NCBI GenBank assembly: GCA_051453625.1
Contig: JBOZIK010000001.1
Coordinates: 18,518,089-18,582,088, forward strand
Origin: Welwitschia mirabilis
Taxonomy: Eukaryota
Direction of reading: 5' to 3'
Length of the DNA: 64,000 nt
This document shows positions 1,433 through 43,735 of this stretch, in pieces (position 1 is the first letter of the stretch; each line of letters starts with the position of its first letter). The position numbers and the translations under genes are program-made. The notes beneath the pieces are model-generated. The model was not told the DNA's origin. It made no database searches and saw only the letters and a program-made list of their open reading frames with translations.

Positions 1433-1450
1433 TCCCTAGCAACGATGCCA
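1433..1450 (-). promoter_or_regulatory. Primer-binding site, tRNA-Asp type (Athila)
   Basis: Minus strand reads TGGCATCGTTGCTAGGGA, a transition-decayed form of the Athila PBS TGGCGCCGTTGCCGGGGA, 5 nt from the LTR end. Confidence 0.8.
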
Positions 1451-1455
1451 AAATC

Positions 1456-2689: not shown

Positions 2690-5600
2690 GTAATCCTAAC
2701 TTCCACCCATACTATAGAATTAGTAATCAATGTCNNNNNNNNNNNNNNNNNNNNNNNNNNNNNNNNNNNNNNNNNNNNNNNNNNNNNNNNNNNNNNNNNN
2801 NNNNNNNNNNNNNNNNNNNNNNNNNNNNNNNNNNNNNNNNNNNNNNNNNNNNNNNNNNNNNNNNNNNNNNNNNNNNNNNNNNNNNNNNNNNNNNNNNNNN
2901 NNNNNNNNNNNNNNNNNNNNNNNNNNNNNNNNNNNNNNNNNNNNNNNNNNNNNNNNNNNNNNNNNNNNNNNNNNNNNNNNNNNNNNNNNNNNNNNNNNNN
3001 NNNNNNNNNNNNNNNNNNNNNNNNNNNNNNNNNNNNNNNNNNNNNNNNNNNNNNNNNNNNNNNNNNNNNNNNNNNNNNNNNNNNNNNNNNNNNNNNNNNN
3101 NNNNNNNNNNNNNNNNNNNNNNNNNNNNNNNNNNNNNNNNNNNNNNNNNNNNNNNNNNNNNNNNNNNNNNNNNNNNNNNNNNNNNNNNNNNNNNNNNNNN
3201 NNNNNNNNNNNNNNNNNNNNNNNNNNNNNNNNNNNNNNNNNNNNNNNNNNNNNNNNNNNNNNNNNNNNNNNNNNNNNNNNNNNNNNNNNNNNNNNNNNNN
3301 NNNNNNNNNNNNNNNNNNNNNNNNNNNNNNNNNNNNNNNNNNNNNNNNNNNNNNNNNNNNNNNNNNNNNNNNNNNNNNNNNNNNNNNNNNNNNNNNNNNN
3401 NNNNNNNNNNNNNNNNCCCATACTATAGAATTAGTAATCAATGTCTTAAATCTTATCACCTACCACTTCCATCATGGATTTATTTCATAAGGCTTACTGA
3501 TCATCCACATCATCTATATTACCATCAGTTTATGAGTTTTACTAATCTTAGGTAGTGGACTTTTCACATAAACAAGAATAAGATCTTTATCACTCCATCG
3601 TTTTGGTTAAGATTAGGTGGATTCTTTATTTCCAAGAGGACGTAAATTTTTATTTTTGAGTTCTTGTGTTAGGCTTGCATTCATTTGATATCTTTAATTT
3701 GGAATCAAGGAAAGAAAATGTGAGTTTCATACTTTCATGATATGTCTTTCTTTTAAGCATTTATAAGGATAAGATATTTCTTAATTAGGCTAATGAGCCA
3801 AAGACCTCTCTTATGTGCATAAAACATGTATATAAGAAGTAGAATTAAAATAAAAATAATTTCTCTTCTTTGAAAGCACATTTTTATCTTTGATCAATTT
3901 ATTAGTTTAGTTAATTGCATTAGAGATATGAATGCTTACTGGTAGTGCAACTTAAAGGATTCATTTGTGATACATTCACCTACATAGAGGTTATAGACTA
4001 TCATATCCAGTGTTTACTAAGGTTAGAATACTTTCTAAGTTAGATCAATGAGTAATTAAATATTTAGGAATGAATTAATAATCCTAACTTTAGTTGTTAC
4101 TTGTCTAAAAAACAAAACAATAATAATAGTAAGAGTGAAAATAAGTAATTGCATGTTTAATTTTTAGAAATTTATTAAAGGCTTGACTTACAATTATTAC
4201 TTTTAGTAAATTAATTAAAAGATTGAGGTAATTATGAAAATTACTAGTACTTATCCATCTTTTTCTATTCTTACAGTTTGGAATTGAATTACTTGACTTA
4301 TTTTAGAAATTAATTTCAATTTTGGTGTAGATTTCTTCTACTTGTATCTTATTCATGAAATAGCAGTTATATATGTGATCTAAATAATTTACTCATGCTA
4401 TTTATTTCATGTAGTTAAATTTATTTAGCACTAGGTTCATATTATTATTTACACTTAATGGCTAGGCTTGGAAAGAATGGGTTATGGAAATCTAAACTAT
4501 CTGTAGGCACCTAATCCTTACTATTAGTCTTTAGTTATAAATACCTGAGTCCCTTAACTATTAGAGTCATAGATGCATAACTTACTTTTGTGAATGTGTT
4601 GAAGCTTTGGATATGGTAAGTAGTACTTGAGAATTTAGCTTAGAACAGGTATGGTCCCAACCTATTCTTGTATTACTTGCATGATTCTAGTGTTTGTTGT
4701 ATTATCTTTCATGTTCAGAAATGTTTTGCTAGTAATAATCACATAATATTAAAGATTTTTATTAGTATCTTGCGAATATTGTCTAAGGGTCTATAGAACT
4801 TATGCTTATTGTGTTTCACTTTATTATAGTTGTATAAATGTTGTACAAATGATGGGTGTTCACTTATCTTGTTATTAACATAATTGAATGAGTTTTGTAG
4901 TTAGCCCTTTGTAAGCTATTTTGTGAATGTCTTGTGTTGACTGTTAACCTATACTTGTGATATGATAATTATGAGAATTAAATCTAGCCAAGGTAACCAC
5001 TTCTTTGGACCTTAAAAACTAGTACTTTCTGTTATGAGTCCTAAGGTATTGAACCTAACATCTAGAACAAAAGGGAAAAAATGTGTACAAATATTATGAG
5101 ATAAGATAATGTTAAAGCCATGATGAGGTTTTAGTCATACCTTCAATGTTTTGGTTTTTTTCTCTTGTACCTTGGGAACCTTATACCTACATACTCAACG
5201 TCGTGGTCCCTATTGAGAATTGTGATGGATGTAGTTCTCACACCATACTCATATGTGCAAGATCTATTGCAAAGGAGGATACTGAGAAAAGCTAAGGTTG
5301 CAAAGAAAATTAGGTGTCATCTACATGTTTTTATTTAGTTATTGCATTAATATATTATGGAAATCATAATTAAAGGACCTTGTGTGTCTTAGAGATTTGT
5401 GATATTTNNNNNNNNNNNNNNNNNNNNNNNNNNNNNNNNNNNNNNNNNNNNNNNNNNNNNNNNNNNNNNNNNNNNNNNNNNNNNNNNNNNNNNNNNNNNN
5501 NNNNNNNGAAATCATAATTAAAGGACCTTGTGTGTCTTAGAGATTTGTGATATTTGTTAACATAATGTTAGTTATTATGCTCAAGTTTATCTTGGCGATA

Positions 5601-8313
5601 AAGAAGTGTTCACAAATATATATGTAGTGTATTTATTCACCCTTTCGTGGAAAGATTATAGATGTTATCTTCTCTTTCTGCTATTAAGTTATTTTGAGAT
5701 ATATATCTATATATGTGCTTTATAGATTTATTAGTAATAATATATGAATTAAGTAATGAATTATTCAAATTCAACAGCTTGCATTTAAGGTCATAGCTTA
5801 TTTATTATTTACTGCAAAAATAACCTTAGTGTAGTCTTAGTATAGATGGTTAACTTGTTATTTAATGAGGGGTCAGAAGTTCAAGGCCAATGAGGTGTAC
5901 ATTTTATGCTTGAAATTCCTTACAAAAGAATTTATAACTTGAAACAAATAAGACTACTAACATGGGAAATTGAAAGGACTTTTAGTTAAAACCTCTCTCA
6001 AAATACATAGAATAGTGGTTAGCTTATTTTAATTGTTATATTTAAAGGTATCATCATATTCTTTAAAATATTATAACTAAGTGGTACTGGAATCGGAAAC
6101 TTAATAGGCATAGAACTAAATTTTTACCCTTCCACTCCTTGGAAAAGAACACAGAATGTTAATAACATGGTTCTCCCCCACCCTCCCATGTAATAAATTT
6201 CCCATGTGCTACTTCTATCTTTTCTTAACAATTATTAAAGGGTTTTTCCCTTCTTTTACCTTGAGCACCCTTAACTATGATCTTGGGTACTGCATCATTT
6301 TTTGTCAAATTAACAAGCCTTTAATCCATCATTATCATTTTCATTACCATAAATTTTATTACATATTTAATTTTCCACATCCTCTCTTTAGTGCCCATCC
6401 TCCATCTTAGCTATGCACAGTTGTCAGTCCCCTTCTCCACGTGGGTACCTGCCCTTTTCTTCATGCCGGTATTTCTCCCTATTACACCCTCCTTAGGACG
6501 AGATAGTAATTAGATCCTTTAACGTCTAAATATTATAAAACCATTTCCTGTTAGTACTTTAAAGATGTTGAAAGATGTTCACTGATCTATCCCTTAATAA
6601 CCTTCTACCCTTAGTGCCTACACATAAACTCATGGAAAAATTGGTCTGACTTAAAGAACAAAATGCCTTGGTGAATTCCCAGGTGACATTGTAGCTCATG
6701 TGGTCACAACGTTGAGGTTAAGATGGAAAATAGGAGGTCTAGTGTTGAGTTTGGGGAATCACTCTTATTAAATTACACAATTATAATTTTCATTATATCA
6801 TTAGTTATAAAGATCTTCTTTAATCAATTGTAAAATTGATATATTAGTGGCAGTAAAAGTTATTATAACCTTGTAAGATGTGGGAACCTTAAGGCATGCT
6901 TTCTATTAAAGTAAATATCTAAGTATCAGATAAATATTTTCCCTTTAATATGATCAACTAACAATCATATTCTAGAATCACAATAAGTGTATCAACCCTA
7001 GTTGGTGTGTTAATCCAAAATTTATTAGTAGTCCATTAAAAATTGCTATCACCTATTCTAGATACATTTTGGGCTTTTACATATTTAGTAAAATACATAT
7101 CTTAATTGGTAGTTAATTATATTATGATTTTTGGAAATTTTACATCAAAACTGTGATACACAACTAGAATTCTACGTAATGATGTTGCCGACTTAAGACA
7201 AACTTTAGATCTCTTGTAGTGTTGAATAATTAGAAGTGAACATTACATAGCTGCTCACTAGAAATGCAACACTAACTTTTTTATGTACAACATGGTTAAC
7301 TATATTGGAAGAAGTTACCGCAATAATTAATGCTTAATATGATCAAATGCTTGAAGGATGTCACTTATTATTGTAGAAGGGTAAAATCTAAAGGAAAATA
7401 AAAACTTAACGTGGATTGAGACTTTTTGTGAATTATTTGTTTTAACATTTATTACTTGAGTTTTCTTTACTACACTTTGTTTTCATGAATTTACTTTATC
7501 AATGCCTTGTTTTATTATGACTTAGTTTGATAATTAAATAAATTTTTTCTAGGCCATTACTTTAGTTTTCTAGTCTCTTTTATTCATAACATGCATGATA
7601 GAATGTTAATTGTATTTTCATTCACCTTATTTCCATTCATTTTGCTCTCTCATACCACATGCATTCACCCTTACATCACTACGAAAAAGCATACTAAAGG
7701 CACATTATTGTTTGTTGTGATGAAATCTCTTCTTCCATAAATCATGCTATCATCTTCATTTTCACCTTTTTCTTCATTTTTATCTTTGTTTCTTTTTAAC
7801 TTTTCATCTTTCATTTCTCAATATCCCTTTCATCTACAACAACCAATTATGGAAGCTTATCACTTAGCAATTTCTCATAGAAATTCCTTTTACTTCATGC
7901 ATCACTTTAGATTTTTTTTCCCATTGCACATTTTCTTTTTAACATTTTTCTTTCTTATGAATTATAGTATAGTTTACAATGCTTTCACTTTTCCCTTTTT
8001 CTCGTTTCAATAAAATGACATGTATGAAGCCTCTTTCTTCCAAATAATTGCATTAACTTATTCTTAAAATCTGTATTCATTTTCCTACATTTTTAAACTT
8101 TAAGGATAAAGTTCTATTTTTGTTGGGGGAAATGGCATTCACATTTTTAAAGAAAATTTTAATTTTAATGCCTAATTTTTTCCCCACAAATTGGCCAAGT
8201 GTTTCAAGTTTATCATTCTTATACTTAAATGTTTTCCTTAAAGATTTTTCCATGTTAGTTATTATTTATTGAACTTTTCACTAGGGTATTAGCAAAAGTT
8301 TGGTTGGGGGATG
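2690..8313 (+). mobile_element. 3' non-coding internal region of Athila-type element B, interrupted by an insertion at 3999-7247
   Basis: 3600-3998 and 7250-7400 align with the Athila 3' regions at 17640-18180, 23130-23680 and 58100-58680 (shared ttaattaggctaatgagc...cttatgtgcataaaa). Two PPT-like tracts occur at ~8120 (tttgttgggggaa) and ~8296-8313 (aagtttggttgggggatg). Confidence 0.65.
3999..7247. mobile_element. Probable long solo LTR (~3.2 kb, Tekay/Del-like termini) inserted in element B
   Basis: Homology to the Athila 3' region stops at 3998 and resumes at ~7250. Termini tatcatatcc...gaacattaca resemble decayed TGTCACAYCC...GGGCGTTACA. The TSD is imperfect (tagac / tagct). No coding signal inside. 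Confidence 0.45.
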
Positions 8314-9632
8314 TAATAACATGTAAAAATTTACATTTAAAAAAAGTATCTCAAGCTAATTTAGCATAAGTAAAGATGTTAAGTTAATTATTTTATTATG
8401 AAATAATGTCTTTCATTATTTTTCATGCCATATGTGAATTTATGTTTTTATCTTTAATGTTTTTAGTTTTTAGCCATTTTTTGAAACACACATCTAAAGA
8501 TGAATCCAACTAGGCATAAAACAATAACTGAGCTAAAAACATATTGTAATGATGCATGGCAGTGACATGATAAACATGTAGTAGTGACATGGTAATGAAA
8601 TGACAATGACATATAATAGTGGTATGTGGTGGTGGCATTTGACACACATGGTGATAACACAAATTGGAAGCATCTAGAACCAAGAGCACATGTTGAAAAT
8701 ATTATAATGATCCTTCACCTAAGACAACATGATGAAGATTCTACCAAATTCTACATGATGAAGCTTTCAACAAATTCTACATGATGAAGCTTTTACCAAA
8801 TTCTACATGACGAAGCTTTCATAAAGTATTACATGATAAAGATTCCACCTAATGCTATAGGACTAGGAATCTTAACCACTCCACCTAACACTACAAGATG
8901 AAATCTTATCTACCTCATCTACCATTATAAGTTAAAGGACTTTAATTACCCTAGTCCTAAATCCCTCTATAAAAAGGGTTAAGCCTTTTCATTGCATTAG
9001 TCTAATCCTTTAACAATGAAAGAAATCATTCTTTAAGGGAGAACTCTTCTATAATGTCTTTTTAGTTTTCATCCTTTGGGAATGGATTAGCCTTGAGGCT
9101 AGCATGATGCTTCTTTAAGCTAAGTCATTCTTCATTGATTAAATCTAGATCCATTTTTATAATAAAATAGTAGTTTACATTTCTTGATTTTATGTATGAT
9201 TCATTTCAAGCCTTTAATGCTTGATATGAAGCTATAATGTTATCAAGTTGTTTATGTTTTTGAGTGAATCCTTCTTGTTTATGTTTTTGTTTCATAGTTT
9301 GATTTCATTTAATGGTTCTTGGTAGAAAAATCCAACTTATCATGTTGATGAATAGGCTATAAAGGACTACAAGTGATCTAGAGATTTCACCACCACTCAT
9401 GTAATGAATGAGATTATATCACCATGATTTAAACCATAACAAACTTGGTGAAATTTGGATTTGAGATGGAGCTTGTACTATATCTTTGAATGAAATTCTT
9501 TTATTTGTTGAAATATTTTTTGTTAGTCTTAAATGCTATGTCCGTTTCAAGCCTCACTTCTTGAAATATCTTTTATTAGATTTTTACTTTGCACTTTTGC
9601 TTAAAACATTTACTATTTTGTCATAATATCTT
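8314..9632 (+). repeat. 3' LTR of Athila element B, left part (interrupted by element A)
   Basis: Follows the PPT and starts taataacatgtaaaaatttacattt like the other Athila LTRs. TATA ctataaaaagggttaagcc at ~8967. Confidence 0.7.
8727..8856 (+). repeat. Tandem array of five 26-bp units in LTR U3 (acatgatgaagMttYYaccaaattct)
   Basis: Unit starts at 8727, 8753, 8779, 8805 and 8831. Degenerate versions occur in the LTRs at ~9990-10150 and ~24730-24945. Confidence 0.85.
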
Positions 9633-10934
9633 TGTTAACATGTAAAAATTGACATTTATATCAAGTGTTTCAAGCCGATTTAGTATAAATAGAGACATCA
9701 ATTTAATTATTTTAATTGTAAAATATGTCTTCTATTATTTTTAAAATAAAACTTAATTTCATGATTTTCTTCATAATAATCGTAGATATTGAGGCACGTT
9801 TTAGAACAAATGGCAGGAGATGAACATAATTTCACATAAAACAATAGTGTTAATGGAGACATGAGGTAGTGACACATAGTAGTAGCATTGAAAGACATGT
9901 GGTAGAGGCATGTAGAGGTGGCATTTCAGACATGTGGTGAGCACTAGTTGGTAAAGAAATCCAACTCCAAAGGCTATATGTTGGACTCATTATGATGAAG
10001 ATTCCACCTAATGCTATATGACAATCTCTACCAAATGCTAGAAGATAACCTCCACTAAATGCTAAATGATCAAAATTCCACTTGATACTATAGGATGGAA
10101 TCTTATCTACTAAATGTTAAATGATGAAGATTCTACCTAATGCTATAAGCCAAAGGCTCTTAACCGCCTCAACCCTACCCTTGCTTATAAAAGGGACTTG
10201 AGCCTTTACTTATAATCATTCTTTGTTTTTAACAAAGTAGTAGAACTTTTGAAGTGTTAAGTCAACATGTCCTTCTAAGTACCTTCTTCAGAAGTGATCT
10301 TGTTTCAAGGCTAAACTGAAAAGTCCATACCAAGCCTTCTTTTTTCATTGATGTAATGTGTTTTTTTGGAATTAATACAAGTAGTTGTTTTCTTTTTATT
10401 TCAAGTGGCAAATATCTTTGTACTTGTAGTGCTTAAGTAACAACTACATTATCAAGTTATATTATTATCTGAGTGAGCTTCTTAGTTGGTTGATCTAATT
10501 ATTTTTGATTTGATGGATTTTAAGTACTTTGTGTCCCTACTTTCCATGATTATTTAAGGTCTGTGAAGGACCAAGTGGCTTTTAAATTCACTGATTCTCA
10601 TATGATAAATGAGATTATATCATCATGAGTTAAGCCACCACTACTTGAAAAATTAAGTATGTTTCAAAAATTCATAGAGTATATTTGGATAGAAGGAGGG
10701 CTGGAGGACAAATCAAATTAAACCTTAAAGCTAGTTCATTTTCCTACCTCTCTAATAAAGTTTCAACAACATTTTCTTAAACCCTTTATCGGTTTTCTCC
10801 TTTCTTCCATTATAATTAAAAGATAAGCAAAATATGTGTTATTTTTATTAAGTTCACCATAATTATCCTTATGGAATAATGATATTAGATCCTTACCTAG
10901 TTTATTTTAGTTTGATTGTACTATATCAAAAACA
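9633..10934 (+). repeat. 5' LTR of element A
   Basis: TGTTAACATGTAAAAATTGACATTT...aaaaACA; colinear with 24375-25660 throughout. Confidence 0.8.
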
Positions 10935-11006
10935 AAATTTTTATATCTCATTGGAACTTCATTGTTAATGACTTTTTCATAATATTCAAAAGTTAGTAGC
11001 TATAGT

Positions 11007-14000
11007 TGTTTAAATGCAAAAATTGACATCACAAACAAGTATAGTTGATCAATTTAGCATAGGTAAAGATACCTATTTTATCAATTTATTATAAAATAAT
11101 GTATTTTTTCCTTTTTTATTATGTTTTAGTAGAAATATGAACTTCCTTAACATTAGAATATTTGCTATTGCCTCTTAAAGAACTTGGCCGAATCTAAAGA
11201 AATTCTAGTGCTAAATGCTACCTAATGTAAGATGACAAAGACCCTACCTAACGCTACATGATATATTTTATAACTGCTCACCTAACGCCATAAGCGAAAG
11301 GCTTATAACCACACCCCACCCCATACTCAACTATAAAAGGGCCTTGAGCCTTCATTTGTAACATCCTTTATTTTTGCAAAGTAGTGGAATCCTTGGAGCA
11401 TCAAGTCAACATGGCCTTCTCAGTACTTTCTTTGGGAGCAAGCTTATTTATAAGATAGCTTGAGGAGTCCTTGTTACCTTTTTTATTCTATTTATNNNNN
11501 NNNNNNNNNNNNNNNNNNNNNNNNNNNNNNNNNNNNNNNNNNNNNNNNNNNNNNNNNNNNNNNNNNNNNNNNNNNNNNNNNNNNNNNNNNNNNNNNNNNN
11601 NNNNNNNNNNNNNNNNNNNNNNNNNNNNNNNNNNNNNNNNNNNNNNNNNNNNNNNNNNNNNNNNNNNNNNNNNNNNNNNNNNNNNNNNNNNNNNNNNNNN
11701 NNNNNNNNNNNNNNNNNNNNNATTGAGGATAATAGCATGGTAGCTTCTCAAGAGAAGCATAATTTTTATTTTCTTATAAGATTTTAGTTTAGTTTTTCGG
11801 TTTTAGATTTTTCAAGTAATTAATACTAGTCATCTCTAGTGATACCCAAACTAGTCTATTTTAGAGGTTTTTCTAGTTTTTCAGCTCTAACTAATTCTAT
11901 ATTGCATATTTAAGATTGGTGTTTCTAATAAAGTTTTTGAAGGTTATGATCAAGGGCAAAAAAGTAAAATTTAACTCACTCTCTATGTGTTTTCTTTTAC
12001 TTCCCATAATTTTAATTCAGTAGTTTATTAATTTTACTATTATAAAACACTAAAATATGAAAAAATATTTAGGATTTTATTTTCATAGGTTTTAATTTAA
12101 TTTTTCAGCTATTTCTATTTTCTATAAATTTTTCGGTTACCCCACTAATTGAAGTATTTTGTGCAAACTTTATGAACTTGTAATATTTTTTTGAAACATT
12201 ATCAAAATCTTGCATGCTATGGATTCAACACAAGTCAAGTAGATTAATTGGAAATTCATTTAATAACATGGACCTTAAAAATAAAGGAAATAAAGAATAA
12301 AGAATCCCACAGGAGAATCAGCCTAATGATGATACTCAAAGAGTATAAGCCTCTTCATCCAAATAACATAAACAAAACACTTAATTTAGTTTTCTAGATC
12401 AATATTTTAATGTACTAAGGTTAAACTAAGACCTCATAGACCAATTAAATGCCTACTACTTTAGTTAAGAAGTGGCTAGAATCCTTGGCCAGAACAAATC
12501 ACAAAACCAACTCAATAATGATACTCCTAAACAAACCCTTTGTGAGTATTTATAACCGTAATGTTTAGGAACATCCTCATGCATAGTCCAAATACCTAAA
12601 ACCCAAAGGTTAGAATTTAAGCCATCCACCATCTAGATATTATTCACTTTCATAGCTTGGAATCAAAAGACCTATACTTACATCTTAAAGAATTTGAGTA
12701 TGTGGTATTAACTATACCCTGATACCCAAATCCTTTGGACATTCTTAAGCTTATTCTTTTTCCATTTTACTTAAAAGAAAAGCCTAAATCATTACTTTAT
12801 ACTCTCAAGACCTTATCCATTAGATATTGGTATAATTTAAATAAGGCCTTCACATCCAAAATTTTCCCAAATCATAAGATGAATGCCTTAATAAGAGAAA
12901 TAATGAATTAAAAGGACCAAGGAACTTTTTCCCAAGCCTTAGAAAGATTTAAAGATTAACTGTAAAAGTGTTAACAACATGGATTTGAGCTAAGGAGTGA
13001 AATTAGCTTCTTTTATATTAAGTTATCTTCAAACAATAGGAAATTGATAGAGATGATAAGTAGGGGTAGTTTCCTTAGTATGCCATTAGATGAAGTTAGG
13101 AACTACCTCAAAACTATCAATGAGAGCTCTAAAACTAGAAGAAGCCAAGTAAACCATTTAGATCTCATCATCTTTTTAGGTCTACAAGTGTGTTCAAGAT
13201 AACTAATAATTTTGAAGTCAATAATAGAATGGATGAGTAAAAAGAGTACAATCATTATCCACTTTACCTTTACCTTTAGCCATAAAACCTAAATGTTCAA
13301 TTTGCCACAGTGATATCTATGAGATAACTGAGTATCTATTCATTCCCTTATTTTGGAACATAGTAAATGAATAAGTTAATATGGTAGGACACCAGTAGAA
13401 AAACAAAAAAAATGACCCATATTTCAAGACCTATAACCCTGGGTGAAGGAATTACTCTAATGTTTCTTAGAAGTAAGATAACTCATATAGTCATAATCAG
13501 AATAACCAGCCAATAATTCATTCTCTTTATCACTCTTCCATAACTTTCCATCAAACTATTAAAAACCCTCTTCATCATACATCCCCTTAGAGGAGTTATT
13601 AAGAAAATTCGTGGACATTCAAACCCAAATTAACTATGACCAAACCAACCATCAATATGAAAGAACTCTAAAGAGATATTCCTCTTTTATAAATAACCTT
13701 AAATAAGCTACTCAAATCAATACCTAATTACTTCAATAGATTTTGTTTTCCCTAAATCAAAGAGAACCAGGAGAACTCCTTATCAGTTCATAGTCAAATC
13801 CTAAAAGAGTTAGGCTTATAGAAGGATTAGATTCCACACACATCAAAAAAACTAAACCAATTCATCGTAGGAGTGGGAAAGAATTGAAAAATTAATCTAA
13901 GCCAAACACAACAAATGAAAAATCAGTTCCCATAGAAGAGAGGGGAAAAAAAACAAAATAATAGAGGAATCTTTACCCATCTATAAAGAGCCTTTGTGTT

Positions 14001-31700: not shown

Positions 31701-33245
31701 CACTCTACTAGAATCTTAAGAGAGGTCATCATATAGACAACATAAATAAAGAATCTTACTTGAAAAGATTAATGATTACTTAATAGATAAAGATTGATAA
31801 AGTTTAAAGCTCAAAACTCCTTAGCTCTGAGATTGCAAGCTTATAGCACCAAGTTCCTAAGCTCTAAGATTCAAAGCCTTAAGTTAGCAAGCTCCAAACT
31901 CCATAGGCAAGAGAATGAAAAGTGTGAAATAAGGAAATGCACTCCCATGAAAAATAGGAAATATCCTTGTTTGTAAGAAAGGGTCTCTACTTAAAGATGA
32001 ACAATAGATAAAAGGCATATAGTTTAAGATCATAGGATTACATAATTTATTATTAATAAGTGGGATGAGTAATAAGTCAGATTAAAGTATGAAAAAGGAC
32101 ATTATATTTATAACTCATGTGCCTAACTAGGATGAGTAATTTTCTTGCTTTAATTAGCAAGGTTAATTACATGCATTATTTCTTTATTCTAGCTCTTTCT
32201 TAATCCTTCATAGGCTCATAAGCATGTTTAATCACTTCAAGACATTTATTAAAAGAATAAATGCACAAATTTTAAAGTTATCATGTGACATAATGATATA
32301 AGACTTTTTAAATCAAATGAATAAAATAATTAATGTATCATAAATATCAATTCAAGACATGCATTGAAATAATACGTGTACAAATTTAGAAGTTATCATG
32401 TAACATAATAAGATAAGCCTCTTTAAATTCAATGAATAAAACAATCAATATGTTATGGATAAAGTGCCATTACACATCTTAAGAATATAAAGATAATGAT
32501 TGAGTAAATCTACTCATTTATCCTTCTTGGATCTAGGTAAGTGTTCATGTACTTGTTTACATGTTCATTTATTTCATGATACATAGAATCCATCATTCAT
32601 ACAACACAAAGAAGAAGATGTCTGTTCATAATTAAGCATAATATAGCTATCACATTTACGAATAAATTCACATGAGTAAATAAGATATCATTTAATATTT
32701 TTGTAAGACATATTATTATACCCTCTTGAATTTTTTAATTTAGTAGTTTTACCTTTTATCTTAAAGTCCTTACATAATGGGATTATTTATTTTTAATATA
32801 TGAATTTCTATTATCATAAAAATGTTCATAATATAATTATTATTATTTTTATGTTGAATTATGAAAAATTAAGAAAACTATGATTAATTACTTAAAATAC
32901 CATCTTATTTCAATAAGGCCTTTAAAAAGGGATAATTAGAAGGAGAATTCATAATCTAATTAAAAGATTGGTTGATTTACAAAGTTTTTCAATGTTGAAT
33001 AGGGTTTCTTCTGGAAACCACTTGGGGGAGAAGACTTTGGTGGAGCTCTGAAGATCGCAGATTTGGAGAAGGAGGGTGCAGGTTTTCAAGATCGCAATTC
33101 GGTGGGGGTGGTTCCGGTTCCTGATCACAGTGCAGGGGGCATTTTCGGCCACAAGATAGGCAGTAGTCAGGTAAGTTTCGGGAGTCTTTTTGTCTTGTAG
33201 TTTTGATCAGTTTTTTAGGATTTTCTATTGGGGTTTGGCCCTAAG

Positions 33246-34335
33246 ATGGAGAAGACTCAGTTCTCCAGGGAGGGAAAATCTCTCGTATTAGACATAGATG
33301 GAGATGCATGTAGTGAAATCAAGAAAAAACTTAAGTTTAGCCTCATTGGCAAGTTTGTATCTTCCAACCCTTGATCTCAATTAGATTAGGTCCATGATTG
33401 GGTCACAATGAAATGGACATGGATTAGCAAAGTCACTGTTATAGCAATGCTAGAAGATCTGGTTTTATTTCAGCTAGATAATGAATAAGATCAAGATGAA
33501 ATCATAGCAATAGGACTGTGATTTTTTGGAGTTAGAGGCCTAGCCCTAACCAAATGGACACCGGGGTTGCAATCGGACCCATAACTATTCAAGAAACTTT
33601 TGATCTAGATCCACATCCATAAGTTTCACTCGAAGTTTTGGGATGAAGATCTGTTACAAAGAATGGTCGGTCAGTTTAAAGATCTAATCAAGCTGAATGG
33701 CATCATGATTAAACAAACTAGATTAGTGTTAGTCATATTCTATGTGTGGATGAGTTTTGAAGATACCAATGAAATTTAATTCATAAAGTTTAGATTCAAA
33801 TGGGAAACCTATGACCTAGAAGTTACATATGAGAATCTTTTGATCCCGTGCTCATTTTGTGGGAAATCAAGATACCTCTCAGGAAGATGTACTTCTCTTG
33901 AGAAGGAATGCTCACACTATGGAAGATTGGATTACTTATGAGAAGAATGTCAAAAGAGATTAATAAACATTGAAGGAAAGAAAAAGGAAACTTACACCTT
34001 TTGTGAAAAGACTGGGCATAATTAGAGTGCATGCAGACACAATCAGCAGAAGGAATAAACCAGAAAAGGCACCACTATTTTTTCAAAGAAAAGCAAGAGA
34101 AAGAAAGATTCAAAATAGGAAAACCCATTTCAACTGCTCATGGATGAGAATGACACCCAACTAAACCTTCAATATGATGAATCTAATGAAGTGGAAAATC
34201 AGACAAAGGGAAGGCATAGCAACAGAACCTTACGAAAGTGAGAGACAACAAAGAATGTTGCAAATAGTTTCCAAGATACAATTGAAAACATATTAAAAAA
34301 GGACAAGAACCCAAAAAAGGGTGAAAAAACCCTCA
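33246..34335 (+). pseudogene. LINE ORF1 (DUF4283/RRM-like domain plus two CCHC zinc knuckles), disrupted
   Basis: MEKTQFSREGKSLVLDID...FSLIGKF...GL*FFGVRGLALTKWTPG...I*IHIHKFHSKFWDEDLL, then VTYENLLIPCSFCGKSRYLSGRC and TFCEKTGHN*SAC. Confidence 0.88.
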
Positions 34336-37300
34336 ATGAATTGTCTCTCATGGAACTGTAGGGGATTAGGATCCTCCTACAAAAACAAGACCCTACAAAA
34401 TATGATTAGTCAATATAATATCGATTTTTTCTGCCTTCAAGAGATGAAGATAAAATAAGATATGGAAAACATAAAGATGGAGAGGCACTGAATCTCTTTT
34501 AGCATACTAGCCCAGGATAAATCTGGTGGTCTTTTGATTTCTACTAAAAAAGATGCAGATCTAATTTGCAGTAGTCAAAATCACATTATAATTTTTCTTA
34601 AAAATGAAGGATGGACTATTACAAATATATACAGTCCCCAAAACAATTATACAAGGTTGTGAATTTAGAAGAATCCCAGAAGAATTTATTAGAAAAATCC
34701 AAATGGATCATTTTAGGTAACTTTAATCAATGCCTCCATCACTGGGAAAAATCTGGTGGGGATAATTGAAACTCTAAAGTGGCCTCTATCCTCAAAGATT
34801 TCTTGGTAAGATATTCTTTCATATATATACCCATCACTGGTTGCNNNNNNNNNNNNNNNNNNNNNNNNNNNNNNNNNNNNNNNNNNNNNNNNNNNNNNNN
34901 NNNNNNNNNNNNNNNNNNNNNNNNNNNNNNNNNNNNNNNNNNNNNNNNNNNNNNNNNNNNNNNNNNNNNNNNNNNNNNNNNNNNNNNNNNNNNNNNNNNN
35001 NNNNNNNNNNNNNNNNNNNNNNNNNNNNNNNNNNNNNNNNNNNNNNNNNNNNNNNNNNNNNNNNNNNNNNNNNNNNNNNNNNNNNNNNNNNNNNNNNNNN
35101 NNNNNNNNNNNNNNNNNNNNNNNNNNCCTTCAAGAGATGAAGCTAAACTAAGATATGGAAAACCTGAATATGGGAAGGCACTGGACCTCTTTTAGCGTAT
35201 TAGACCAGGGTAAATTTGGTTGTCTTTTGGTTTCTACTAAAAAGGATGCAGATCTAATTTGCAGCAGTCAGAATCACATTACAATTTTCCTTAAGAAGGA
35301 AGGATGGACCATTATAAATATATACAGTCCCCAATACAACCTAGACAAGGCTGTGTNNNNNNNNNNNNNNNNNNNNNNNNNNNNNNNNNNNNNNNNNNNN
35401 NNNNNNNNNNNNNNNNNNNNNNNNNNNNNNNNNNNNNNNNNNNNNNNNNNNNNNNNNNNNNNNNNNNNNNNNNNNNNNNNNNNNNNNNNNNNNNNNNNNN
35501 NNNNNNNNNNNNNNNNNNNNNNNNNNNNNNNNNNNNNNNNNNNNNNNNNNNNNNNNNNNNNNNNNNNNNNNNNNNNNNNNNNNNNNNNNNNNNNNNNNNN
35601 NNNNNNNNNNNNNNNNNNNNNNNNNNNNNNNNNNNNNNNNNNNNNNNNNNNNNNNNNNNNNNNNNNNNNNNNNNNNNNNNNNNNNNNNNNNNNNNNNNNN
35701 NNNNNNNNNNNNNNNNNNNNNNNNNNNNNNNNNNNNNNNNNNNNNNNNNNNNNNNNNNNNNNNNNNNNNNNNNNNNNNNNNNNNNNNNNNNNNNNNNNNN
35801 NNNNNNNNNNNNNNNNNNNNNNNNNNNNNNNNNNNNNNNNNNNNNNNNNNNNNNNNNNNNNNNNNNNNNNNNNNNNNNNNNNNNNNNNNNNNNNNNNNNN
35901 NNNNNNNNNNNNNNNNNNNNNNNNNNNNNNNNNNNNNNNNNNNNNNNNNNNNNNNNNNNNNNNNNNNNNNNNNNNNNNNNNNNNNNNNNNNNNNNNNNNN
36001 NNNNNNNNNNNNNNNNNNNNNNNNNNNNNNNNNNNNNNNNNNNNNNNNNNNNNNNNNNNNNNNNNNNNNNNNNNNNNNNNNNNNNNNNNNNNNNNNNNNN
36101 NNNNNNNNNNNNNNNNNNNNNNNNNNNNNNNNNNNNNNNNNNNNNNNNNNNNNNNNNNNNNNNNNNNNNNNNNNNNNNNNNNNNNNNNNNNNNNNNNNNN
36201 NNNNNNNNNNNNNNNNNNNNNNNNNNNNNNNNNNNNNNNNNNNNNNNNNNNNNNNNNNNNNNNNNNNNNNNNNNNNNNNNNNNNNNNNNNNNNNNNNNNN
36301 NNNNNNGAAATTAAGGAGGACCTCAAATTCATTAAAACTGAACAGGAGAAGGGAGGTAATCAGGACAGCCTTAGAAACAGAGAATACCAGTGCCTAATGG
36401 AGCTCCAAGAAATACATGAGGATAAAGAAAATTATTGGAGAGAACGATCAAGGATCAAATGGCTTAAAGAAAGTGATAGACATACTAGGTTTTTCTTCCA
36501 GCAAACTAACTAATATAAATCAGATAACAGAATTAAGAGGCTTACAGTAGGAGGACGAGTCATAAAAAAAGAAGAAGAAATAGCAAAGGAACTGCAAACA
36601 CATTTGCAGAAAGTCTGGGAATGGGATAATATCGGCCCCGGCTTAATTCTAGAGAACAAGAAGGTTTTAGAGGAGGATAACCAAATGCTAAGTAAACCCT
36701 TAAGTAGAGAGGAGGTCCTAGCTGTAGTCAGATCGATGAAGAATAACCAAGCGCCTGGGCCAGATAGATGACTAGTCGAGCTCTTCAAAACTTATTTTTC
36801 TATCCTAGGGAATAACCTCCATAATATAATGCAGGAAATTTTCTATAAATGATGGATTCCTAGAGAGATAAATCGAACCAGAGTAGTTCTCATTCTGAAA
36901 AAAAGAGATGTCAGTAGACTAGAGGACTTTAGACCCTTAGGGGTTTGCAATGTTATTTACAGAATCTTCACAAAAATTATGGTTAGCCGAATCATCCCCT
37001 TGCTCCCCAATGTGATTTCAGAGAACCAAGCTAGCTTCATTCGTTCCAGGTATATTCAAGACCAGATCGTTTTAACTCATGAAATTATTCACTCTATTAA
37101 AAAGCACAAATTTTCACTTCTTATTAATAAACTAGATATTGCAAAAGCTTATGACTTAGTTAGTTGGTAAGATATAGGGTGCATTCTTAGAAAAATTGGC
37201 TTTTCTCAAGATATTATTAACCTATGGCTAGACACGCAAGCTTCAGCTGAATTTAGTGTGGAGGTCAGCAGTCACAGATCAAACTTCTTCTTAGTAGGGA

Positions 37301-38573
37301 GAGGCTTGAGAAAAGGGGATCCTCTATCCCCATGCCTCTTCTTATTTGTTATGAATGTTTTATAGGTTTTCTTAAAAAACAACGGAGTTACAGGAATTAA
37401 TATTGGAGGTCAAATTTTTCTCAATAATCACTATGTAGACGATACTATTTTCATGACCAAGGTGACCATTCAACAAGCAAAAGATCTAAAAAATGCCATG
37501 AATACATTTGCAAAGGCAATAGGGATTCACACCAATTATAACAAATCAAGAATACATACCTTGGGTAGACCATGTACCAGAGGGGGTGAAATCACTTGCA
37601 TTATGAATCCAAAGTTAGGAGACCTGCAGGACATCTACCTGGGCATTCCTTTATGGAATTGACATAGGATAAATACTTGAAACTACATTCTGGAATCTAT
37701 ACAAAGAAGGTGTAGCTCTTAGCACAATAATTTTCTGTCTTCAAAGGCTAATATCATTCTTACAAATTCCTGTCTAATTTCATTATTTTAGTATATAGCT
37801 TTTGTTATCGCCCCCCAAAGAATATCATTCAAAAAATTGACAGGATCTTAAAAGATATTATATGGTCGGGGGAAAAAGACCACCACAGGATACATCTATG
37901 TAAATGGGAAATCATAGCCCATCCTAAAGAATCAGAAGGATGGGGAATACAGAAACTTGAAGATTGTATCCTCACAGGAGCTCAAAATATTTTAAAGAGA
38001 TTACAAGAGGGAGGACAACCTTGGAGTGACTTAATGAATGACAAGTACAGAAACTGGATAATTAAACATGAAGTGTCTTATCTTTGGAAGCACCTCTGCA
38101 AAGCTAACCAACAACTTTTTGATTTAAACATCACTTAGAATAAAACATCCAAATAGATCTTGATCAATAAATATGACAAATAGGAAGGCTATAAGAAGCA
38201 TTAGAGTGGCCNNNNNNNNNNNNNNNNNNNNNNNNNNNNNNNGCTGAAAGAGCACAACTGAATTTTGACAAGAGATCAATTATCAAAAAGGGGAATTCAA
38301 GTTGATATCAAATGCCTCATATGTCAGTCCACTATAGAAATAATTCAGCATCTCTTTCATCAATGTGCCTAGAGCAAGAAGTTAATGGCATTAATGACTA
38401 AGTACTATCAAAGTAGCAGTGCCTCTAACATGCATTCAGTCGACAGGATTTGCCTGACTGTGTGGTAGATATGGCAAATCAGAAATCGTTTAATTTTCAA
38501 TAACGTCCCCCTTCCCTTCCCTATTTATACAGCTAGAAAGATAATCCACAATTACTCTCAAATTAAACTTGCC
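34336..38573 (+). pseudogene. LINE ORF2 (APE endonuclease, reverse transcriptase, zf-RVT), disrupted and gapped
   Basis: MNCLSWNCRGLG (34336), FCLQE, GNFN, YWRERSRIKWLKESDRHTRFF, QAPGPDR, DFRPLGVCNVIYRIFTKI, KLDIAKAYD, GLRKGDPLSP, YVDDT, YLGIPL, KCLICQSTIEIIQHLFHQC and W*IWQIRNRLIFN. Confidence 0.95.
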
Positions 38574-39802
38574 ATGGAAGCCACTCTAACATATGAGCCT
38601 ACTGACTTAAGCCTCTCTGAAGTATGCCCAGAGCTGTGGGAGAAAATATAGGTAGTGGGGTGGGAAACCCTTCTGCATAAACTAAGAGGGGATATGGGGG
38701 CCGATATCGCCCTGTTTTACAGGCGATGGAGAGGAGAAGAACAAGTTTTAGAAGAATCTTGATAGAAATTTCAGAAGAATCTTTTGTCAGATTGTTGGAG
38801 GTTCCAGCGGAAGGCGAGAGGATCCTATTCGGAAGCAAAGGCCAATAAGAAGCCCTTAATTTCTTTCTAGGTGGAATCCTAAAGCTGCCCAATGGGATAG
38901 CAATAGGAAGGCGTTACCGCCTCTGTGGGGACTCAGGGTAGAACTAGTGGACAGATATTTCATTAAATCTGGTAATTGTTCTAAGCTTTCTGGAATTCAT
39001 TTTGTGTTTCTTAAGGCTCTTGAATTAGGACGTCAAGTGAAACTTCCCTACTTCTTCATTTAAGTCCTCAAGCGAAAGGATTCCTCTAGGCACTCAAGCC
39101 TAATTCTTACTCTTTGGAGAGCAGCTCAAGAAGCTCGGGCCAGAGAGACCCCTCCCCATCCTTCCCCTCACCGTCCTCGCCAAACCACTCCTACAAGAAA
39201 TTCTTTCTGAAGTTCCTCCTCAGCTCAAAACCCTATCCCAGAAGAAACAGAATCTCCTTTCAGCCCTAGTAGTAGGGGGCATCTTTGTCCCCAGCTCACT
39301 TAATAGGTCCGTCTTCACCCCTGGCCCAACAGAATTCTCTCAAGGAGAATCCTCCCTCTCAAGCTTAGTCTCCACATCTTTCTTCCCTAGCTTCAAGCCC
39401 TTCCTCACCAGCTAACCCTGCTCAGGAATCCCAACACTCCTCCCCCTCTAGCTTCAGACCCTAGTATCCCCCAAAGCTCTACCTTTGACTCCTTTTCTTT
39501 GGAACCTCAACCCCAAACTCAGGATATTGACATAAATATAGCTAGGAGAGAGGTTTTTCTGCCAACTTTGCATGGACTGAAAAGATTCCCATATGTCACC
39601 TCTCTCTCATCAAGCTCTTCCCTAGGCAATAAAATCGACTTACAGGAAGAAAGCTCTATGCCTTCATCCAGATAAGAACCTGGCTAGTGCTAAAGAATTC
39701 AAGGAAATCAATAAAGATTTTGAGGTGCTCTTAGATGACTTAGGCAGATTCTTACTTAAGCATAACCATCATAACATGTTCCCTTATTACAAAGGTCTGT
39801 AG
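38574..39802 (+). pseudogene. LINE extra coding region (ORF2 extension or ORF3): transposon accessory-like domain, Pro/Ser-rich linker, C-terminal J-domain; disrupted
   Basis: ATG in GCCATGG context, in frame with ORF2. Translation across frameshifts: MEATLTYEPTDLSLSEVCPELWEKI*VVGWETLLHKLRG...IEISEESFVRLLEVPAEGERILF...LPPLWGLRVELVDRYFIKSG...HFVFLKALELGRQVKLPYFFI...RHSSLILTLW; then a P/S-rich stretch; then the J-domain; stop TAG at 39800-39802. Confidence 0.75.
39586..39760 (+). pseudogene. DnaJ/Hsp40-type J-domain coding segment (HPD motif at 39665-39673)
   Basis: FPYVT/[frameshift]LSHQALP*AIKSTYRKKALCLHPDKNLASAKEFKEINKDFEVLLDDLGRF matches the J-domain consensus PY.vLgl...as..eIKkAYRklAl..HPDKN....a.e.FkeI..AYevLsD...R. 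Confidence 0.88.
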
Positions 39803-40850
39803 AGGACTAGTATCCTCTTTCTTTTAGGCTTTTACCTGGTATTCCGAGTTCTTTATAAGTTCTAGTTTTCTAGGGGTAGTTTCGCCCCTAGTTTTCAGTA
39901 GTTTTTAGTCCTTTTGTATGATTGTTTCCTTTAGTACTTGTGTCCTCTTACGTAACTGATTGTTGTGTCATTTTTTAAGGGGCGGTTTTACCCTCCTTTT
40001 TGGTTTGCTGTTCTTGCTGCTATGAACAGTCTATGCTTCTGTAATGATCGGGTGGCGAGTTTACCCTAGATGTACATTTCCTAGTCTAATACACATACTT
40101 TAAAAAAAAAATTCTAATTAAAGGATTAACATTCCTAATATCCAAGTAATTAAGGTTTAAAAAATATGAAGTATAACACCTAAAAATCCCCATGATAGAT
40201 ACAAAGACTAATAATAAATTAAAAGTTGAAGATTAAGTAGATTTAGAAGCTATTATCAATATTTTAACTTATGTAACTAATGAGGAAATTAGATAAATTA
40301 AAATTAATACCTTATTAAGGGAACTTTTTTTTAGTAGATGGGTTAATAGCAATACTTAAAGGACTATTAAAAGATATATGTATTAAAATTTAGGGTTTTA
40401 TTTACTTAATTGATTTACTGTTAATGAAAACTTAAGGAGATGTACATATAGTTTTCTTAGGAAGGCCATGGATGGCTACTAATGATGCCATCATTTACTC
40501 CAGGAGACATGGAATGGAAATTAGCTTGTAAGAACTTAAATAGAAAATTAAATTATCTAATGCAACTATCATAGAAGAAATAGGATACAATACTAAAGGT
40601 AGGACAAATGCCATCCTAACTTAAGAAGTACATATAATATTAAAATAATAAAATGAAGTAAAACATAAGGAAAAATTTTAACATATCAAGAAATAGTAAA
40701 ACCTCCATTTAAAGAAGGGTTAGAATATATAAAAGTATATCCTAACAAACATTTAACTATAAACAGTAATCTAACTCATTCTTAGAAAAGCAAGCTTAAA
40801 ATAATGTTGGAGGAAAAGAATCCTTTACTTCAAATCATACTAACATAAAA

Positions 40851-40868
40851 GAGAGAGAGAGAGAGAGA
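40851..40868 (+). repeat. (GA)9 microsatellite inside the decayed pol of element D
   Basis: Visible GA run. Confidence 0.9.
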
Positions 40869-40963
40869 GGGATTCCAACATTTACCAATATAAAATTTAC
40901 TTAAATACTTTAATTCAATTAAATAGAAAACTTGAGGTAAGGTGTAATTCTTACTGCAAGAAG

Positions 40964-42110
40964 TATCATCAGAAGATTGATGGATCTTTACAAAACATCT
41001 CTGATTTTGAAGATGTCTCTATTATGGAAGAGGTTTATACAAAATTCAATCTCTTGATAGAAGATGTATTTGATCTTAAAGATGTCTACCTTATGATATG
41101 AATTAATTGTCAATAGACATCTCTAGTGATGAAGATGTCTATTCTAAAATTTTAATTGTCTAATAGTAGATGTCTCTGGTAATGAAGATGTCTATCTTAA
41201 AAGGATGACCTATCCTATAGTAGGTGCCTATGAGTTTGGAAGATGTCTCTAAGTTGTGAAAGATATCTACTTCAATAAATATATCTATGACGTAAAAGAT
41301 GTCTATCTTATGACTACTGTAAGACTACTTTTAAACCACATGAAATTAGTATTTATGTGTTATAATTCTTGATCCAAAAATTTAACAATGATGTTATCCA
41401 CCTAGAAAAATGTAAGATTATATTTCAAACAAGATTTTTCATTATTCTTCTAGATACATCTTTAAGAAATTTTGTTCTTGATCTAACAAATGCTTGTAAT
41501 TAAGATTTTCATGAAATAAGGGATCTTTATTCTTTCTTTTAGAAGAATAGTCTAAAAACCTTTAAATAAGAGAAAATATCATTTGCATGTAATATGCAGC
41601 CTAAAATATTCAAGATTCAACCTTATATTTACTAATTCTTTAACCTTTCCATTTAAAATTTAGTTATTCTTATTCCTAATTTAATGACTTATTTTCAAAT
41701 ATGAGAAAACACAAAATAAAAGACATTAGTAATTCTCTTCATTCTTCTATGTAAACACATATGTGAGTGAACTCAAGTAGGATTTAAGCATTACTAAAGG
41801 GAAAAAAAAAAAAAAACTCAATCATTAAGAAAAAAATCATGCAAAAGTTATGAAAACACTTCTCTAGCATTTCATTCATCTCTTCAAGAGGTATTAAGCA
41901 TATGTTTCTACATCAATAGTTTACTCATAAAGAAGAGTTTGAAATCATTCTTTCTTCTCTAACATGGGATATAATCCCTTACAAGAGAGACTAACATTGC
42001 TTTCTAACATAAATTCTTATAATCTCATAACTCTCTAAACAACAACATTAAAACATAATTACAAAATAAAGTATATGATGTTTTCACATTGAATCACATT
42101 TGCATCAACA
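40964..42110 (-). repeat. 3' LTR (~1.15 kb) of Ty1/Copia copy 1
   Basis: Minus strand starts TGTTGATGC at 42110 right after the PPT remnant (caagggat). Colinear with 53012-54084 plus 61389-61439. Confidence 0.8.
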
Positions 42111-42149
42111 ATCCCTTGTTTGGGATAATGTGGAGATTAGATGCTAGAT

Positions 42150-43735
42150 ATTAAAATATCATGTTTGATTTGGAGATGAAGTGCTTCATTTTATAGATTA
42201 ATAGATTCTTTGTCAACATATCAGCAACTTATTCATTAGTAGAAACATGCTTGATCATGATTACTTCTCCTTCACTTTTTCTCATATGAATTAATATTTG
42301 ATTTTAATATGTTTACTCTTCTTGAAGAGTGTACTCTAGAAAGAGCATTATGATCAGTATATTATCAACAAACGTGTTAACTAGTATTTTTAACTTTATC
42401 TACAATTGTTCAAATAATTTTAAAATCCATAAAACATGTTGAAGAAAATAATCCATGGAGATGTATCAAATTCAATAGAGGAAAGATATCCATATGTTTG
42501 TTTTTCTAATTTCCAACAGATTGGATTTCTCCCATGAATAATAATGAAACCAAAAGTGAATTTTCTATCTTTAATGGATTCACCTCAATTAGCATCATAA
42601 TAACAATGAATATTTCCATCTCACTTTTCAAATTTAAATACAAAAGTAAGCGTGTGAAATACATATCGTATGAGCTTTTTCAAAATAGTAAGATGACTTT
42701 CTCTTGGTTCAGCCATATATCTGGACATAAATCATAGTGCAAATTTAATATCAAGTCTTGTATGACAAAAAAATTTTAAGGAGTCTACCAGGAACTTGTA
42801 AAGAGAAGCATCGACCCCTTTTGAATGGTCTTTCCTTTCAATTATAAGATTTTAAGGTAATGGTATGGCAGCTGGTTTTACTTTAAGTACTCATATTTTT
42901 TCATCATGACTTGTGCAAATTTTTATTAATGTACAATCATGGTATTTGTCTTAATCAAGCTAAATTCTTAATCAATATTTAAGGACACCAACATATTTCA
43001 TTTTAAATTCATTTTTCATTCTGATCTTAACATTTTCAGTTATTTTCACATAGTAGCAAAGAATACCATGTCATTAATATAAATGAGTATCATAATGAAA
43101 TGGCCATTTAAGTGTTTGAGATATAAACTTGGCTATGAAATACATTCTTTGTAGCATTTTCGACTCCAAACCAAGTTATTTGATCATGCTTGCAACCATA
43201 ACAACCTTTCTTAAGTTTGAAAATTTTGTTTTCTTGACCTTTGGCAATAAGACATTTAGGCTAGAAAATATATAGTTCTTATTCTAAGTATCCATTTAAA
43301 AATGCACTATTTACATCTATTTGATGTAAAAAATATCCTNNNNNNNNNNNNNNNNNNNNNNNNNNNNNNNNNNNNNNNNNNNNNNNNNNNNNNNNNNNNN
43401 NNNNNNNNNNNNNNNNNNNNNNNNNNNNNNNNNNNNNNNAAATGCACTATTTACATCTATTTGATGTAAAAAATATCCTCCATGAATAGCTAAATAAATC
43501 ATGAGTTTTATAGTTTTAAACCTGACAACTAGTGAAAAGATCTCTTCATAGTTAATGTGCTTATTTTGCTTGTATCCTCTAGCAACCACCCTTACTTTGT
43601 AGCCTGTGATAATGCACTTTTTATCATTTTTAAAAAAAATACATTTAGAGTTAATGATTTTCTTTTTCTTTAGCTTATCCACAAGATTTCGTGTGCCACT
43701 TTTTTGTATTGCATTCATTTCCTTCTCCATTACTT
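42150..43735 (-). pseudogene. Ty1/Copia RT and RNase H (copy 1), disrupted
   Basis: ORF 43317-43730 MEKEMNAIQK...YKVRVVARGYKQ...INYEEIFS.V...LHQIDVNSAF; RNase H end HVSTNE*VADMLTKNL at ~42200-42250. Confidence 0.92.

Follow-up and report, generated by a model that had tools for sequence, protein, structure and literature searches.

A DnaJ-type J-domain remnant near the 3' end of an L1-like LINE insertion in Welwitschia mirabilis

The J-domain remnant and the element around it

The window analyzed in this study is a stretch of 64,000 nucleotides of Welwitschia mirabilis DNA (assembly GCA_051453625.1, contig JBOZIK010000001.1, positions 18,518,089 to 18,582,088 of the forward strand), and all positions below refer to it. 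The insertion of a whole L1-like long interspersed nuclear element (LINE), about 7.1 kb long, occupies 32970–40112 on the + strand, as defined by its target-site duplication (TSD), paralogous empty sites and Pfam domains. Near its 3' end, at 39602–39802 on the same strand, lies the remnant of a J-domain. The initial annotation had quoted the plus-strand translation of this segment with an intact HPD motif, and this translation is present in the sequence.

The 58-residue fragment translated from 39626–39802 (+ strand, P0001) matched the Pfam DnaJ family (PF00226) with an E value of 2.6e-9 and a score of 37.5 bits. The gathering cut-off is 27.8 bits, and the assignment to DnaJ made in the initial annotation was thus borne out. 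The match spanned positions 17–56 of the 63 in the profile. When the reading was begun at 39596 and the TAG was taken as X, positions 9–56 were covered (E 5.4e-10, 39.7 bits); the Pfam span on the DNA is 39605–39739. Judged by its profile score, the match is far above chance, with the six-frame scan of 64 kb allowed for.

The J fragment aligned with solved class A J-domains over 41 residues without a gap, including those of dnj-12 (2och, E 3.6e-7) and DNAJA1 (2lo1). Sis1 was also among the solved J-domains aligned without a gap. The alignment takes in helix II, the HPD motif, the short loop and helix III (about 39692–39733). HPD is encoded by CAT CCA GAT at 39665–39673 and falls on the HPD of the solved J-domains. 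A single-sequence AlphaFold2 model of the fragment was poor (mean pLDDT 70.1, pTM 0.36), and showed one long helix at residues 22–46.

The J frame of the window copy is interrupted. A TAG lies in frame at 39623–39625, and helix I is out of frame 5' of about 39601. A complete, uninterrupted domain including helix I is therefore absent from this copy. The J region is 5 nt shorter than in other copies, the shortfall being just before helix I, and the frame ends at a stop at 39800–39802.

The TSD that encloses the element is 15 nt long. Its 5' copy, TCTAATTAAAAGATT, is at 32955–32969 and its 3' copy, TCTAATTAAAGGATT, at 40113–40127, both on the + strand, with 14 of the 15 positions matching (1 mismatch). 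When the whole window was searched with up to 2 mismatches allowed, this was the single match. A match to the TSD with at most 1 mismatch turned up in 6 of 2000 shuffles of a 3.3-kb flank.

Two DNA runs (X1 and X3, as Logan contigs) and two RNA runs (X17 and X14) were compared with 38243–40800 at a likeness of at least 80%. In the DNA runs, 89 contigs of X1 and 86 of X3 joined the left flank (about 32913–32954) straight to 40113. These contigs are unoccupied copies of the host repeat that received the LINE. Together, the TSD and the empty-site contigs establish 32970–40112 as one insertion with the J-domain inside, which is where the initial annotation had placed it.

The LINE is nested in this other multi-copy repeat, which covers about 32913–32969 and 40113 to about 40178. 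The summed depth of the host repeat was 7000–13800 as far as about 40220, and divergence sets in at 40165–40178 in many copies. Its left arm in the window has about 12 letters more than the empty-site consensus (aligned by eye).

Pfam domains follow one another on the + strand of the insertion in the order DUF4283, endonuclease, RVT_1 and zf-RVT, all of them interrupted by stops. The remnant of open reading frame 1 (ORF1) with DUF4283 is at 33219–33941 (PF14111, E 5.5e-10). ORF2 starts with the remnant of an APE-type endonuclease at 34297–34844 (PF03372, E 1.3e-5; 25.6 bits, cut-off 24.5). It continues with the reverse transcriptase (RT) at 36898–37560 (RVT_1, PF00078, E 1.3e-26) and the zf-RVT zinc-binding motif of its C-terminus at 38253–38381 (PF13966, E 2.8e-8). 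In the window copy the ORF2 frame terminates at a TAG at 38649–38651. A run of 10 A at 40102–40111 is the remnant of the poly(A) tail. The J-domain lies about 0.9 kb 3' of the ORF2 stop and 300 nt 5' of the poly(A), the latter in agreement with the distance first noted.

This make-up (DUF4283 ORF1, APE endonuclease, RT, zf-RVT, A-tail and TSD) matches that of a plant L1-type LINE. DUF4283 is the usual ORF1 domain of plant LINEs according to the main text of an L1 survey (PMC5203782). The window copy itself is a fossil, with the TAG in the J frame, the 5-nt shortfall before helix I, and both ORF1 and ORF2 broken.

Three N gaps were counted inside the LINE (34845–35126, 35357–36306 and 38212–38242). 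The first, of 282 N, is flanked by the endonuclease-region pieces 34434–34661 and 35127–35355, which are 87% identical and fall on the same element coordinates. Probably, fragments of more than one copy were merged in the scaffold here, or a rearrangement took place in the element. Because of these duplicated coordinates, the detail of the N-gapped LINE interior is not to be trusted. The stretch 38243–43339 is free of N, and the ORF2 end (zf-RVT), spacer, J-domain, A-run and flank are therefore on one assembled piece.

The J segment in other copies

Contigs matching 38243–40800 numbered 9748 in X1 and 9326 in X3. The X1 contigs were distributed over likeness classes from 80 to 99% as 418, 1370, 3807 and 4153. 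The two runs are not independent, because the flank is common to both without a difference.

The summed word depth over the J region (39619–39790) was 6007–6872 in X1 and 6043–6401 in X3. Over the ORF2-end bins (38243–38672) it was 2797–11368 and 1679–7642, respectively. Zero-difference contigs of the unique flank had depths of 7.9 and 9.4. Past 40220 the summed depth of the flank was 144–427 per bin, save the last bin, 40737–40800 (about 1100). In each of the DNA runs, the J region exceeded the unique flank in summed depth by a factor of several hundred.

These depths clearly mark the J segment as a high-copy repeat, roughly as abundant as the ORF2 end. The initial annotation had named presence in this copy alone as a refuting result; this did not hold for the DNA runs of the source organism. 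Within the window, neither blastn nor tblastn found the J segment or the 3' region a second time.

The pieces listed from other copies overlap in order, on different contigs, from the ORF2 end onward (38489–38857, 38855–39130, 38999–39243, 39101–39538 and 39178–39439). One further listed contig covers 39652–39868 at 84% identity. A link between J and ORF2 thus appears well supported for other copies, by overlapping short contigs and not by a single molecule.

The variant readings that follow were made by hand from the read consensus, the window codons being checked by computation, and 40 of 779 differences were listed. Other copies hold 5 additional letters between 39587 and 39601, and loose ends before 39601 were found in 33 contigs and 5+5 RNA reads. 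The frameshift guessed in the initial annotation (FPYVT/LSHQ) was therefore right in kind. With the 5 letters in place, the stop-free frame at 39391–39600 (+ strand, 70 codons) runs into the J frame.

Helix I in other copies reads F-[I/V]-T-[L/M]-G-L-S. Sequences of this type are the usual start of a J-domain. Position 39534, an A in the window copy and about 22 codons 5' of the LG motif, was G in all 9 RNA reads; in the DNA runs, G made up 5343 of 5822 depth (X1) and 1392 of 1729 (X3). This makes codon 39532–39534, ATA in the window copy, an ATG in most copies.

In helix III, A at 39717 was replaced by C in 5894 of 6342 depth (X1) and 5074 of 6680 (X3). This change turns Asp of the window copy into Ala, which is typical of helix III in J-domains. 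At 39713 most copies encode Gln and the window copy Lys. The alternative letters at these two positions were carried by 82–94 contigs. The differences at 39740 and 39763 were synonymous. An RNA variant (4 reads) read L-H-L-H-P-D-K-N-P-A-G 3' of 39657, which supports the earlier proposal that KNL was derived from KNP. Of the four C>T/G>A changes put forward in the initial annotation (the others being KSTY from KSAY, VLLD from VLSD and TAG from CAG), this was the one that found support among the variants and differences listed. By these readings, most copies are nearer to a standard J-domain than the window copy is.

In a hand count of the read consensus covering 20 codons, 8 letter differences were synonymous and 6 non-synonymous, and HPDKN did not vary. 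The pairs counted were three helix I variants, and the RNA variant against the window in the part from helix II to the loop. The binomial P was 0.010 if a quarter of the changes were synonymous by expectation, and 0.055 if a third.

Between ORF2 and the frame that leads into J lies a spacer (38652–39390, + strand) of raised G+C content (46%). None of its frames, each of about 246 codons, is clean; the stops number 7, 9 and 16. A Pfam search of the six frames of 38652–39620 returned no family, with one chance-level match (E 0.23). At the ORF2/spacer junction there was no internal A-run, which would be a sign of template switching.

The composite J frame of the window copy is interrupted by 1 stop over 136 codons, and the RT frame by 6 over 452 (36307–37662), as against the 7–16 of the spacer frames. 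This suggested that, at the time of insertion of the window copy, the J frame and ORF2 were equally intact. The pattern of frames also suggested a separate small frame for J, not a continuation of ORF2. A J-domain made as a C-terminal extension of ORF2 was considered, and is less likely because every spacer frame has stops.

One bin of the spacer, 38931–39016, has no coding signal and yet a summed depth of 7375 (X1) and 9414 (X3), as high as that of the J bins; its neighbours were 2–10 times lower. Possible explanations are an unrecognised exon, a conserved cis element, or sequence common to another repeat.

In RNA, 45 reads were matched of 11.05 million records in X17, and 87 of 12.55 million in X14. 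The majority were less than 90% alike and fit only partly, and the depth over the J region was 2–8. Poly(A)-selected RNA thus contains related copies in very small amounts, which says little on function.

Origin and possible role of the J segment

A HMMER scan of 1.84 billion representatives with the J fragment returned 9 matches at E 0.001 or below, with identities of 34–56%; the best (E 2.4e-7) was 43% identical. The 7 that were examined are ordinary J-proteins. The parent gene was not identified among these library matches. Word-based protein searches gave 8 candidates at the 'longer' lengths, none of which scored, and zero candidates at the 'near' lengths. A metagenome scan found 5 loci of 36–48% identity, all generic J-domains. 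A search with the ORF2 RT for fused forms returned 8 matches (22–30% identity, the best a pine protein), and PF00226 was present in 0 of the 8.

A LINE-borne J-domain was not found in the literature searched, including term look-ups in the main texts of PMC6338049 and PMC5203782. In the main text of the latter, the L1 survey, DnaJ has 0 occurrences.

In our preferred reading, a high-copy plant-type L1 family carries the J-domain as a regular component of its 3' region, in a small separate frame kept by selection, and the domain would recruit Hsp70. From the sequence evidence, we put the probability of this reading at about 0.5. The identity of the J-domain, the boundaries of the LINE and the repeated nature of the J segment are demonstrated. 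In this part the interpretation of the initial annotation stood: there is a real J-domain remnant in a TSD-flanked, plant-type L1 LINE, in a segment whose summed depth is like that of the ORF2 end. Its further part, on Hsp70 binding, is hypothetical, and translation of the domain and selection on it are predicted. We infer the linkage in all copies, the separate small ORF, the selection and the Hsp70 recruitment.

By this reading, part of a host gene that codes for a J-domain would have been acquired by an ancestor of the LINE family; its closest relatives among solved structures are of class A. Read-through (3' transduction) may have brought about the capture, as may a template switch to a host mRNA, and the piece would then have been carried along with each later copy. 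In source elements it would form a separate frame of about 90 codons, most likely made up of the ATG, the J-domain and a short tail. This frame would be kept by selection in active elements. Its product, through HPD, would activate the ATPase of host Hsp70 near the RNA–protein particle of the element.

We tentatively suggest a more specific form of this proposal, which we consider possible but less than probable. An active plant LINE lineage may encode a third, stand-alone J protein of about 90 residues, under purifying selection, that activates Hsp70 at the ribonucleoprotein (RNP) for ORF2 folding, particle assembly or release. Roles in RNP remodelling or in dismantling silencing complexes, as first proposed, are speculation.

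Plant L1-clade LINEs share the make-up described above, as well as high copy number. Some of them acquired extra domains, such as an archaeal-like RNase H, or an RNA recognition motif in ORF1 of beet BNR. The principle is the same, a host-derived domain fixed in a LINE lineage. In contrast, the extra domain here lies 3' of ORF2, past the spacer, and probably in a separate small frame.

The 3' transductions and LINE-mRNA template-switch chimeras known from mammalian L1 and rice chimeric retrogenes likewise have host sequence between the ORF2 end and the poly(A), within one TSD. By this analogy, transduction or template switching is the likely route by which the J piece was first acquired. However, transductions mark single copies or small lineages, whereas the J segment is about as highly repeated as the ORF2 end and thus appears to have become part of the standard 3' region of the family.

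Orchid Ty3/Gypsy elements are reported to have acquired an N6-methyladenosine (m6A) demethylase domain (PMC9289625), likewise a host protein domain captured recently by plant retrotransposons; those, however, are long terminal repeat (LTR) elements, and the domain is a different one. With class A J-proteins (DNAJA1, C. elegans DNJ-12 and yeast Ydj1), the likeness extends over helix II, HPD, the loop and helix III in the 41 gapless residues. In contrast to them, the J-domain here is alone, without G/F region, zinc finger or client-binding domains, and its frame is broken in the window copy.

Polyomavirus T antigens engage host Hsp70/Hsc70 through a J-domain of their own, fused to the protein that it serves. 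They are likewise a case of a selfish element with its own HPD module, and provide a working analogy for function. The J-domain here, on the other hand, seems to stand alone in a retrotransposon, and its function is predicted.

LINEs are thought to need very few proteins of their own and to rely on chaperones borrowed from the host, and human L1 particles are reportedly associated with Hsp70-family and DnaJ proteins. If the preferred reading is true, access to Hsp70 limits retrotransposition enough for the element to encode its own recruiter, and a co-chaperone joins the short list of accessory domains gained by non-LTR elements. The family would then be a natural system for the chaperone dependence of target-primed reverse transcription in plants. 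It would also be a retroelement parallel to the T-antigen J-domains; a description of a non-LTR retrotransposon with its own co-chaperone was not found in the literature searched.

Several observations weigh against the preferred reading. No whole intact J copy was seen among the contigs and reads compared, and the TAG at 39623 has no row among the 40 of 779 differences listed. The synonymous excess comes from 20 hand-counted codons of read consensus, and if transitions predominate it is marginal. The RNA runs give very little support, and a close relative of the J fragment was found in neither protein library. A J-domain without a client-binding part has no evident route to act specifically on the particle of the element.

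The assembly and the depths also call for caution. The LINE interior is N-gapped with overlapping, 87%-identical pieces, and the assembly of this repeat is therefore imperfect. Summed contig depth is not copy number, and its profile is patchy, ranging from 217 to 7375 over 38652–40112 in X1. Because the noncoding bin 38931–39016 is as deep as the J bins, depth alone is no proof of coding constraint. Among the 16 pieces listed of more than 19,000, none bridges 39538–39652.

It is also quite possible, if short of probable, that the 3' untranslated region of a master element received the J piece in a single capture and that the piece was copied throughout the family as non-coding cargo, its likeness to J-domains reflecting capture shortly before a copying burst. 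The family-wide presence fits this equally well. So do the spacer of about 0.9 kb without a clean frame, the noncoding bin as deep as the J bins, the very low RNA signal, and the lack of such a predicted protein among the matches in either protein library. The copies seen include no intact one, and the window copy has no start codon; on the other hand, most copies have the upstream ATG and the standard helix III Ala, and the J frame of the window copy is no more broken than its RT frame. A recent capture is also at odds with the spread of contigs over 80–99% likeness, in which HPDKN is kept and the differences lean synonymous (8 against 6). The J-region contig that is 84% alike indicates that the segment persisted through long divergence. 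Even as a passenger, the segment would be a clear case in which a fragment of host coding sequence turned into the standard 3' region of a LINE family with many copies, and would be usable as a marker for dating it.

An origin of the J segment in a different abundant repeat is unlikely. By this explanation, a non-autonomous retroposon sharing the LINE tail, or a host J-gene family, supplied the segment, and the locus is composite or an assembly chimera. Short-read contigs of high-copy repeats can be chimeric, and the uneven depth, the N-gapped scaffold with its overlapping pieces and the unbridged 39538–39652 would all fit. However, a single TSD and the empty sites bracket the entire 32970–40112, and 38243–43339 is gap-free. 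The listed pieces of other copies overlap from the ORF2 end (38489) to 39538. In addition, the loose ends before 39601 are homologous to 39572–39600, and other copies therefore cross most of the unbridged stretch.

That this one LINE copy alone received the segment, by a single 3' transduction or as a processed fragment of a host J-gene, is highly improbable: the window has no second copy and no library searched has a close relative, but the depth of the J region in both DNA runs and the 82–94 contigs with alternative letters at 39713 and 39717 argue strongly otherwise.

The 3' tail and the wider window

A T-rich 3' tail follows the J frame at 39803–40101 (+ strand). This tail contains three hairpin-like motifs, GGGK-(3–6 nt)-TTT-(0–1 nt)-RCCC, at 39873, 39979 and 40050. 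These are the only matches in the window, and all lie in the last 240 nt of the LINE. The expected number was 0.12 for a pattern that was chosen after the matches were seen. In other copies, a string resembling the motif is inserted between 39939 and 39997. The motifs might be a 3'-end recognition structure, but the RNA fold of the tail was no better than that of shuffles (z -1.24), of which 11 in 100 did equally well.

Other features lie outside the LINE. On its 5' side, 32231–32460 is a 115-nt tandem duplication, the two units being 79% identical. On its 3' side, units of about 53 nt with the word GAAGATGTCT are loosely arrayed over 40987–41312. Farther on, at 43317–43733 on the - strand, an open frame of 138 codons adjoins an N gap, and its translation resembles, by eye, a Ty1/copia-type RT fragment.

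The window contains 14 N runs, and is thus a draft scaffold. Its G+C content is very low, at about 29% of the non-N bases. The G+C content of the LINE is 35–50%, against about 25% in the flanks.

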